A stretch of 64,000 nt of DNA. It comes from Nitrospirota bacterium (GTDB lineage: Bacteria; Nitrospirota; Thermodesulfovibrionia; Thermodesulfovibrionales; Dissulfurispiraceae). Positions 32,650 to 34,007 of the stretch are shown here, piece by piece. The stretch covers positions 14,759 to 78,758 of the forward strand of contig JAJYVD010000002.1 in NCBI GenBank assembly GCA_021792185.1, read 5' to 3'. Position 1 is the stretch's first letter. Every line of letters begins with the position of its first letter. A model generated the notes under the pieces. That model was given only the letters and a program-made list of their open reading frames with translations, was not told the DNA's origin and searched no databases. The translations under genes and the position numbers were made by a program.

Positions 32650-32943
32650 TCAGCAGCAATCGCTACCGGTAGTCCCGCCGCAGTCACAGGAAGGCGGGCC
32701 GCCTGTTATAATGCTGTTGATCAGCGCGGCAGCGCACCCGACGCCGGCATCGACTTTTATGGCTCCGAATTCGCAGTTCAAGGCGCACGCGCCGCATTCC
32801 ATGCAAAGGTCTTTGCCGGTAATCATGGCCCTTTTATCCCTCATCGCAAATACGCCGTGCGGGCATACGTCAACGCATCTGCCGCAGCCGGTGCATTTTT
32901 CAGGGAAGAATTCGAGGCTTGTTACATTCAAGAGGTATTTCAT
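32650..32943 (-). CDS. hgcB: mercury methylation ferredoxin HgcB
   Basis: Two CxxCxxCxxxCP-type motifs (CTGCGRCVDVCP, CMECGACALNCE) and a C-terminal Cys-rich tail ending in CC. The ATG at 32943 overlaps the hgcA stop (ATGA). Confidence 0.8.
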   Translation of the reverse strand: MKYLLNVTSLEFFPEKCTGCGRCVDVCPHGVFAMRDKRAMITGKDLCMECGACALNCEFGAIKVDAGVGCAAALINSIITGGPPSCDCGGTTGSDCC

Positions 32944-34007
32944 ATGACATTCCATTGAGAAAGCTTATCCGTTATTAATAGTATAACCGATAAGGCCGTG
33001 AATATTAAATATACCGGCAGGGCTATCTTCAGTTCCTTCCTGACGCCGGACATGCCGGTAAAGGTCGTAGAGCCTGTAAACTGAAGGGCGATATAAGAGC
33101 TTGCGAGCGGGAAAAAGATATAAGACGCCGCAGCAGGCAAAAGGGAAAACTCAAACGCGCGCATAAGGGTGAAGGCAGCGAGAATGCCTGTTATCCAGCC
33201 TTTAATCGCAAACGAGCGGAAAGGAATAAAAGGCAGAAACACCGGGGTTATGAAAGCGCCGCTGAAGATAGCCGCAAGCCCCAAACCCAAAAACGGCAGG
33301 CCTCCGGACCATGCATCCTTGAACATAATGCCCGAAGGCTGAAGCCCGAAGATAATCAGCACTATAAGGGCGAATAGGGGAAACTTCTTCATCGATGGGT
33401 TTATCTCCATGGGCGTAAGGATAAGCCTGTCGAGCATCGTGAATTTTACAAGCCTCATCTCATCGCTTTTTTTATAATTCGCATTTACATATGCAGGGAC
33501 ATCCTTCGCGTAAACAGGCCCGAAATGAACCCTGAAGCCGGTTTGACGCTGCACCGCCATCGCATTTACCCCTACCGCTCCCAACTGCGGGACGATAAGC
33601 CTTTTGTGGCTGACGATTTTATCCAGTTGAGCCTCATTAACGCGTTTAACGAGTTCATCCGTGCCGAATGTGCCTTTTCCGGCAGCGCACCACACATTTA
33701 TGCTCTTTGTATCGAGCACGAGTATCCAAGCATTAAGCCCTTTAAGGGATTTCCTGAGAATATCGAAGCTCAATTTATAATTGGCGGTCACAAATATATC
33801 GGATTCAACTCCTGACTCTCCGAGCGAATAAAGACCGGGCTCAACAGCATATCTCATGCGGAAATTGCTGACGCGCGAGCGGACAGCTCCGATGTAATCG
33901 TCCCGCGTCCATTCCGGTGTTATCCTGCGTACAGCAGGCTTTGACGCAGACGGTCAACAACTGCCGGCTTTTTCGTCTGTTTTAATGATATTCAGTTTCG
34001 TACTCAT
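32940..34007 (-). CDS. hgcA: mercury methylation corrinoid protein HgcA, frame extended through in-frame UGA (33954-33956)
   Basis: Cap-helix signature NVWCAAGKGTFGT, an N-terminal corrinoid-binding-like domain, and a C-terminal 4-5 TM region. The ORF-track start is 33857. The same frame is open up to ATG 34007 except for one UGA, and the bridged segment (ITPEWTRDDYIGAVRSRVSNFR-MRYAVEPGLY) resembles the conserved pre-PGLY region of HgcA. Confidence 0.75.

Follow-up and report, generated by a model that had tools for sequence, protein, structure and literature searches.

A candidate Cys-Sec tail upstream of the called start of HgcA in a Nitrospirota clade

HgcA has been described as commonly being a selenoprotein, with a cysteine-selenocysteine (Cys-Sec, or CU) motif that lies in an N-terminal extension upstream of the annotated start (Haft and Gwadz, bioRxiv 10.1101/2022.07.06.499078; cited in PMC11588087 as J Bacteriol 205:e00259-22, 2023). 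These authors studied 20 genes, among them DND132_1056 of ND132 and GSU1440 of G. sulfurreducens, and in all 20 one UGA permits the upstream extension; the sequence PCUGP was perfectly conserved in the 20 test cases and Sec machinery was found in all of those species. For HgcB, the reported share of selenoproteins is 6.4%, and the Sec lies at another site. A 2026 review (PMC13188914) lists HgcA (NF040863) with the motif CU, and another paper goes no further than to say that some HgcA homologs 'may be selenoproteins' (PMC11588087). Here, we analyze the hgcA gene within 64,000 nucleotides of DNA from a Nitrospirota bacterium (contig JAJYVD010000002.1, positions 14,759 to 78,758; the whole stretch is called the window below), in which the reading frame continues upstream of the called start through a single UGA.

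A preliminary description of this DNA had proposed a Cys-Sec HgcA and had taken selenocysteine to be undescribed in this protein. The second part of that claim falls to the publications cited above. The idea of a Cys-Sec HgcA is thus correct but already published, and the window gene is a further mis-annotated example with a minor motif variant. The main text of Haft and Gwadz does not refer to Nitrospirota.

The hgcA frame and its in-frame UGA

Retranslation of positions 32940-34100 shows that, on the minus strand, an ATG at 34007 opens a frame that passes through a single TGA (33956-33954) and enters the called hgcA open reading frame (ORF; Met 33857, stop TGA 32942-32940). The order within the frame is M(34007)STKLNIIKTDEKAGSC-TGA(33956-33954)-PSASKPAVRRITPEWTRDDYIGAVRSRVSNFR-M(33857)RYAVEPGLY..., with YDNK preceding M(34007). 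Read-through yields a product of 355 amino acids, as compared to 305 amino acids for the call at Met 33857. The relevant features are as follows.

32940..34007, minus strand: full hgcA coding sequence, 355 codons plus stop, with one UGA (proposed Sec at residue 18); from translation and the NF040863 match
33957..34007, minus strand: N-terminal 17 codons, MSTKLNIIKTDEKAGSC, the last of which is the Cys codon TGT 33959-33957; from translation, with a start that aligns with homolog N-termini
33954..33956, minus strand: in-frame UGA, proposed Sec codon, residue 18, within C-U-P; the same C-TGA-P is found in seven relatives
33858..33953, minus strand: bridged segment between the UGA and Met 33857, 32 codons without ATG, GTG or TTG; conserved across homologs, with residues 26-50 corresponding to HgcA profile positions 1-25
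33855..33857, minus strand: Met 51, the start chosen by ORF and gene callers, giving the 305-amino-acid product; entry P0001 is the same 305-amino-acid call in public collections
33675..33698, minus strand: NVWCAAGK, residues 104-111 with Cys107, in the corrinoid-binding domain and inside the NF040863 match
32650..32943, minus strand: hgcB ferredoxin, Cys form, with C-terminal CC; NF040864, 119.6 bits against a cut-off of 99

The preliminary description had reported this upstream frame and the position of the UGA directly after a Cys codon, both of which are borne out by the translation. It had counted 33 bridged codons that lack ATG, GTG and TTG; the absence of these codons stands, and the length is corrected to 32 (33953-33858). 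We ruled out genetic codes 4 and 25, which read UGA as sense, since hgcA and other window ORFs end in TGA. Because hgcA itself terminates at TGA, UGA is an ordinary stop codon in this organism.

The identity of the gene is well supported. The read-through product matches the NCBIfam equivalog profile NF040863 (HgcA_corrinoid) with 381.5 bits against a cut-off of 275, and residues 26-348 of the protein correspond to positions 1-323 of the 325 in the profile. Because the match begins at residue 26 with profile position 1, 25 residues that are conserved in the family precede Met 33857, in agreement with the earlier suggestion that the bridged segment is conserved in HgcA. The sequence NVWCAAGK fits the corrinoid-domain motif N(V/I)WCA(A/G)GK with its conserved Cys, which we take to be the HgcA signature, and a crude hydropathy scan places hydrophobic segments at approximately residues 204-350, fitting a C-terminal membrane domain. 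The ATG of hgcB (32943-32941) overlaps the hgcA stop codon (32942-32940) as ATGA, and gene callers assign hgcB a product of 97 amino acids in a related locus (L167). The remainder of hgcA and hgcB are both intact and both exceed the curated profile cut-offs.

The preliminary description had suggested that related metagenome-assembled genomes (MAGs) be searched for the same UGA. We found an in-frame C-TGA-P in seven further distinct relatives, one of them an isolate, and thus in every distinct relative fetched. A search of metagenome contigs with an N-terminal alignment contributed at least two close relatives and also revealed a second group of CU loci (see below). A search of genome contigs with the whole protein listed mostly distant HgcA matches, which provide Cys-form context and are not the closest relatives. 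The seven relatives are listed here with the sequence around the UGA (shown as an asterisk).

L001, Dissulfurispira thermophila isolate, 2.45-Mb contig BLAB01000001.1 of assembly GCA_009176125.1, gene JZK55_20780, 2866-3918: MANILNIPISC*PSGAKKPAVRR
L002, metagenome: ...NTVPC*PGTASKPAVRR
L003, MAG: ...KAGRC*PSNALKPAVRR
L084, metagenome: ...PISC*PSGAQKPAVRK
L085, metagenome: ...TASC*PSGSSKPAVSR
L165, MAG: ...PISC*PSGAKKPAVRR
L166, MAG: ...AGSC*PSASKPAVRR

Across the eight Sec forms (the window and these relatives), 11-20 codons precede the UGA and 31-32 follow it up to an RMxY anchor, and all length differences are whole codons. The relatives that share the codon, namely the isolate and six other lineages, have 73-84% protein identity in the scanned region. 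A lone in-frame stop near the 5' end resembles an early nonsense mutation, and could in principle mark a decaying pseudogene or a sequencing or assembly error for TGC, TGT or TGG. Four independent assemblies of the window hgcA agree at every one of the 186 nucleotides that precede Met 33857. Because of these identical assemblies and the same C-TGA-P in the 2.45-Mb contig of the isolate, the TGA is not an assembly error. Both flanks of the UGA are conserved as protein, with no frameshifts or additional stops, and the rest of hgcA and hgcB is intact as described above. On these sequence comparisons, we regard sequencing error and pseudogene decay as effectively refuted.

Alignment with full-length homologs provides a second line of evidence. 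Homologs P0020 (MDKLKVIKTEKEAAAAGSPCCSPLKPPAAVRK...) and P0033 (...NAASCCSAVEPP...) carry Cys-Cys where the window hgcA has Cys-UGA. With X standing for the UGA, so that no Cys could be drawn to it, the MAFFT alignment sets this position opposite the second Cys of the CC pair in both proteins, and this answers the question, raised in the preliminary description, of whether a Cys aligns with the UGA in HgcA homologs. The N-terminal sequence M..L.IIK.E.. of the window protein aligns with the annotated N-termini of the full-length P0020, P0026 and P0033. CC[P/S] tails are frequent among other HgcA loci. A crude sorting of 164 HgcA loci among the matches listed, a sample biased by the manner of fetching, gave 22 with C-U, 52 with CC, 24 with a TGA not preceded by Cys and 66 with neither. 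One of the 22 C-U loci (L025) looks like a chance TGA, and the 24 loci that lack a preceding Cys mostly represent ordinary upstream stops.

These data bear on an alternative in which the UGA is a true stop. The 17 codons before it would then encode a leader peptide (an upstream ORF), HgcA would start at Met 33857 or at a non-canonical ATA or ATC, and the upstream conservation would reflect constraint on a regulatory RNA or leader. GenBank entries that start 3' of the UGA conform to this alternative (P0001, 305 amino acids; MCL4457313.1, 317 amino acids), as does P0005 (327 amino acids), which is annotated from a codon that reads ATA in L166. Yet the 25 profile residues upstream of Met 33857 come without a canonical start, M..L.IIK.E aligns with real N-termini of Cys homologs while the UGA aligns with Cys, and indels in eight lineages, all of whole codons, leave the frame across the UGA intact. 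We therefore consider a true stop improbable.

A candidate SECIS hairpin and the capacity for Sec decoding

Sec insertion in bacteria involves a selenocysteine insertion sequence (SECIS), and the RNA downstream of the UGA was inspected for such an element. Three features are needed for what follows.

33924..33938, minus strand: conserved hairpin CCUGC-UGUAC-GCAGG, candidate SECIS apical stem-loop, with loop GU at +25/+26; from RNAalifold
33925..33949, minus strand: hairpin CUGCGU-N13-ACGCAG of the preliminary description, an alternative pairing that excludes the conserved hairpin; present in the window
5498..5713, plus strand: UXX-star glutaredoxin-like selenoprotein gene; NF041114 'UXX-star selenoprotein family 1', 102 bits against a cut-off of 72, residues 5-71

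The hairpin CCUGC-UGUAC-GCAGG is found in eight of eight Sec forms, at a distance after the UGA of 15 nucleotides (the window and L166) or 18 nucleotides, and is the sole consensus structure that RNAalifold returns for these eight sequences. Within the hairpin, the third positions of the CCT, GCT and GTA codons never vary, while flanking synonymous sites (K, S, D, Y and I codons) do. A changed loop base in L085 extends the stem. The Cys form L164 has CCGGCAGCCGUACGCAAG at the position of the hairpin and no equivalent hairpin.

A different hairpin, CUGCGU-N13-ACGCAG, had been put forward in the preliminary description. It exists at 33949-33925 but is not conserved, the conserved one being CCUGC-UGUAC-GCAGG at 33938-33924. 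L166, the closest distinct relative, is identical to the window from the UCUGCGUC stretch through GCAGG, so the CUGCGU/ACGCAG hairpin can form there too. We rejected it as a functional element since its 5' arm is absent in six of seven relatives (L001, L002, L003, L084, L085 and L165). A longer lower stem (CCGUC...GACG) in the minimum free energy (MFE) fold of the window was likewise rejected, being unsupported by RNAalifold across relatives, and neither a conserved lower stem nor a bulged U was detected around the 5-bp hairpin.

The SECIS of E. coli fdhF has a loop G and U at about +23/+24 from the U of the UGA. The candidate element resembles bacterial SECIS elements of the fdhF type in being a stem-loop within the coding sequence, shortly 3' of the UGA, with an apical-loop G and U at approximately +25/+26. 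It differs in that a conserved stem of only 5 bp is detectable and in that no Rfam model matches.

The second group of CU loci provides an independent view of the same arrangement. In this distant hgcA group, an in-frame UGA lies 51-53 residues before the RMxY anchor in at least 15 C-U loci (L082, L102, L107, L111, L113, L121, L124, L132, L143, L145, L146, L150, L155, L161 and L163), of which L082 is a Syntrophobacteraceae MAG, and at the same site in three loci that lack the preceding Cys (L116, L118 and L125). The motifs are varied: C-U-P, C-U-G, C-U-L, C-U-Q and C-U-S. A hairpin of another sequence, GGCUC-AGKU-GAGCC, starts at +17 and again places its loop GU at +25/+26. When 17 loci of the group were aligned, 93% of cells paired, three pairs were compensatory and none of 500 shuffles reached the covariation score; slid controls for the alignment were 25-55% paired. 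Mismatched versions of the hairpin are present in the CC forms of the group (L114, L127 and L142). Covariation is thus found only in the hairpin of the distant group and not in that of the window clade. In both groups, hairpins seem to accompany the UGA and to decay where Cys replaces it, which is as expected of SECIS elements. That the same pattern recurs at the same site with a different hairpin also speaks against a true stop.

Good but indirect evidence that the source organism can decode UGA as Sec comes from elsewhere in the window. The preliminary description had claimed that a gene at 5498-5713 requires UGA to be read as Sec, and the NF041114 match upholds this. The match spans two in-frame UGAs, one at 5534 in a G-U-P-F-T redox motif and one at 5702 in U-G-V-stop, and a 6-bp hairpin, GCCGAU-AGUU-AUCGGC, follows the second. 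Because the window contains this UXX-star selenoprotein gene, the organism very probably decodes UGA as Sec. A further suggestion, that the UGA-CCG context shared by this gene and hgcA is meaningful, is not sustained: the UGA is followed by GGC, CUC or other codons in further Sec-type hgcA genes. The window was scanned twice for other selenoprotein candidates with an in-frame TGA, and nothing convincing came up beyond hgcA; the UXX-star gene could not appear in the first scan, which was confined to TGAs with a Cys nearby.

We are confident, if short of certain, in the reading that these comparisons favor, in which the UGA at 33956-33954 would be decoded as Sec to give a 355-amino-acid HgcA with a Cys17-Sec18 tail. 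Translation would begin at the ATG at 34007, and SelB and tRNA-Sec recruited to CCUGC-UGUAC-GCAGG (33938-33924) would insert Sec at the UGA. The Cys17-Sec18 pair would then sit in an N-terminal tail, short and flexible, that precedes the corrinoid domain, and the C-U pair would take the position of the C-C pair in non-seleno homologs. The insertion of Sec, the SECIS function of the hairpin and a metal-handling role of the tail are the parts of this reading that we infer.

A number of observations weigh against Sec decoding of hgcA. The stem of the candidate SECIS is only 5 bp, shows no covariation among the eight close relatives and contains one C-A mismatch in L084, and the 71 nucleotides around the UGA fold no better than shuffles (MFE, z = -1.2). 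Rfam, searched at a permissive E-value, gave no match in the hgcA 5' region; because the UXX-star control was missed as well, Rfam is uninformative for SECIS elements here. Neither selA, selB nor selD is among the 18 window ORFs scanned, and ARAGORN found only tRNA-Ala, and no tRNA-Sec, in the 64-kb window. Three close homologs (P0010, P0013 and P0026) have neither Cys nor Sec in the tail, so this tail is dispensable in evolution and not universal. The 37-kDa band obtained on purification of recombinant ND132 HgcA presumably corresponds to the annotated short form without the extension, and lysates of the expressing E. coli make methylmercury (PMC11588087). The tail-less homologs and the activity of the recombinant protein also favor the true-stop alternative weighed above. 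No direct data on selenium incorporation were found for any HgcA in the literature searched.

The 5-bp invariant hairpin being the only SECIS support in the clade, together with the Sec machinery not seen in the window, leaves room for a reading in which the UGA is read through without Sec, by near-cognate Trp or Cys insertion or by low-level selenium-independent read-through, giving a C-W or C-C tail. We consider this most improbable. One window gene has two in-frame UGAs and belongs to a family that is curated as selenoproteins, and the UGA of hgcA is kept in eight distinct Sec forms with no drift to UGG, UGC or UGU. Hairpins go with the UGA, whereas Cys forms have degraded versions or none. 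Furthermore, all examined species with a CU-type HgcA encode Sec machinery (Haft and Gwadz).

Annotation and gene neighborhood

The UGA has consequences for how these genes are recorded. The hgcA genes of the Nitrospirota clade are truncated to 305-327 amino acids in public collections, and among the best 120 homologs many are exactly 305 amino acids or are otherwise shortened to 309-327. The D. thermophila isolate carries Sec-type hgcAB, and its hgcA (JZK55_20780) is annotated as a 305-amino-acid 'hypothetical protein'; no paper linking Dissulfurispira with hgcA was found in the literature searched. The annotation of P0005 (L166, 380-1456) begins downstream of the UGA at a codon that is ATA in L166, and P0121 (MCL4457313.1, 317 amino acids) would, by length arithmetic, begin at an ATC codon. 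Such ATA and ATC starts appear to be means of recovering conserved N-terminal residues without read-through of the UGA. The genes of this clade will be described wrongly in surveys that rely on the length of hgcA, on N-terminal motifs or on gene calls. A CU motif broader than the published PCUGP, combined with loss of the hairpin in Cys forms, should be useful for a better annotation rule. The Sec-type hgcAB of D. thermophila offers an experimental handle on whether selenium is inserted into HgcA and whether it matters for mercury methylation.

Genes near hgcAB in the window are listed next.

34107-34754, plus strand, divergent from hgcA: 215-amino-acid protein with a Cys-rich stretch (RCCCSNCANFNSC) and no Pfam or NCBIfam match
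32314-32646, plus strand, convergent with hgcB: 110-amino-acid protein with a CEGGCP motif and no family match
31965-32210, minus strand, downstream of hgcB: 81-amino-acid Glrx-like (PF05768) protein
35020-37349, plus strand, just beyond the hgcA-divergent gene: AIPR-domain (PF10592) and PIN-domain proteins
45155-45663: small ORF pair resembling, by appearance, a toxin-antitoxin module

A 215-amino-acid gene occupies the same position in L003 and L167-L169, and a ferredoxin-like gene is found there in D. thermophila (L001). The 110- and 81-amino-acid genes are kept beside hgcAB in L167-L170, and a gene for 110 amino acids also lies beyond hgcB in L003. The AIPR and PIN genes and the putative toxin-antitoxin pair suggest accessory or mobile content near hgcAB.

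Other features of the window lie further from hgcAB.

12119-12250, minus strand: c-di-AMP riboswitch (RF00379, 83.5 bits), directly upstream of the gene at 10241-12121
10241-12121, minus strand: 626-amino-acid transporter with AA_permease_2 and K_trans domains, probably a KimA-like K+ importer
47688-54258, plus strand: region with the nitrogenase gene nifD at 48576-50003 (TIGR01282, 799 bits)
59702-61126, plus strand: NrfA-like multihaem cytochrome c, below the cut-off
61157-62467, plus strand: ammonium transporter

Comparison with described Cys-Sec and Cys-Cys proteins

Cys-Cys HgcA proteins such as P0020 and P0033 are homologous to the window protein over the whole length (64-67% identity), share the M..LK.IK.E.. 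start and carry a dithiol at the aligned position. They differ in having TGT or TGC in place of TGA, and the conserved hairpin is missing in the Cys forms L164, L114, L127 and L142.

The CU-type HgcA proteins of Haft and Gwadz are among the closest described systems. They share with the window protein membership in NF040863, an N-terminal extension hidden by a UGA and containing Cys-Sec, Cys-Cys in non-seleno homologs and a partner HgcB that ends in CC. The surroundings of the motif differ: x-C-U-G-P is found in all of the published Sec members (their Fig. S7), whereas the window has S-C-U-P-S and its clade [S/P/R]-C-U-P-[S/G]. The published P-C-U-G-P pentapeptide is thus absent from the window hgcA, while the CU dipeptide and its location in a hidden extension are present. 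The position differs as well, with the Sec of the window clade 31-32 residues before the R-M-x-Y anchor as compared to 51-53 in the distant metagenomic group, because a segment of approximately 20 residues, '..PxFVxGxxxTPxGxVPxV..', is missing from the window clade. The candidate SECIS hairpin of the window clade also has another sequence.

The clade's own candidate SECIS hairpin and the position 31-32 residues from the corrinoid-domain anchor would be the grounds for a tentative and rather doubtful proposal, that the short C-U-P tail of the Nitrospirota clade may have arisen separately from the published x-C-U-G-P tail. If this is true, repeated switching between Cys and Sec at one tail position would argue for selection on a selenol-thiol pair for the capture of Hg(II) or of soft metals in general. 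Being culturable, D. thermophila would then allow a first test of whether Sec in HgcA alters methylation rate or affinity for mercury.

A broader parallel is provided by SaoL, SaoB and SaoC of the SAO locus and by the MerT-family selenoproteins. These belong to protein families unrelated to HgcA, and no SAO genes were identified among the annotated ORFs of the window. They resemble the window protein in that a terminal or flexible segment carries a Cys next to Sec or to a second Cys, and Haft and Gwadz propose that this pair contacts a mercury-like metal in the SAO and MerT-family proteins. The preliminary description had suggested that a selenol-thiol pair in HgcA could serve as a substrate-capture arm, which is plausible. 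In line with published speculation, the two residues of the HgcA tail may coordinate soft metals and deliver Hg(II) to the methyl-corrinoid site, alongside the CC that ends HgcB, a role that we judge to be evenly poised between true and false.

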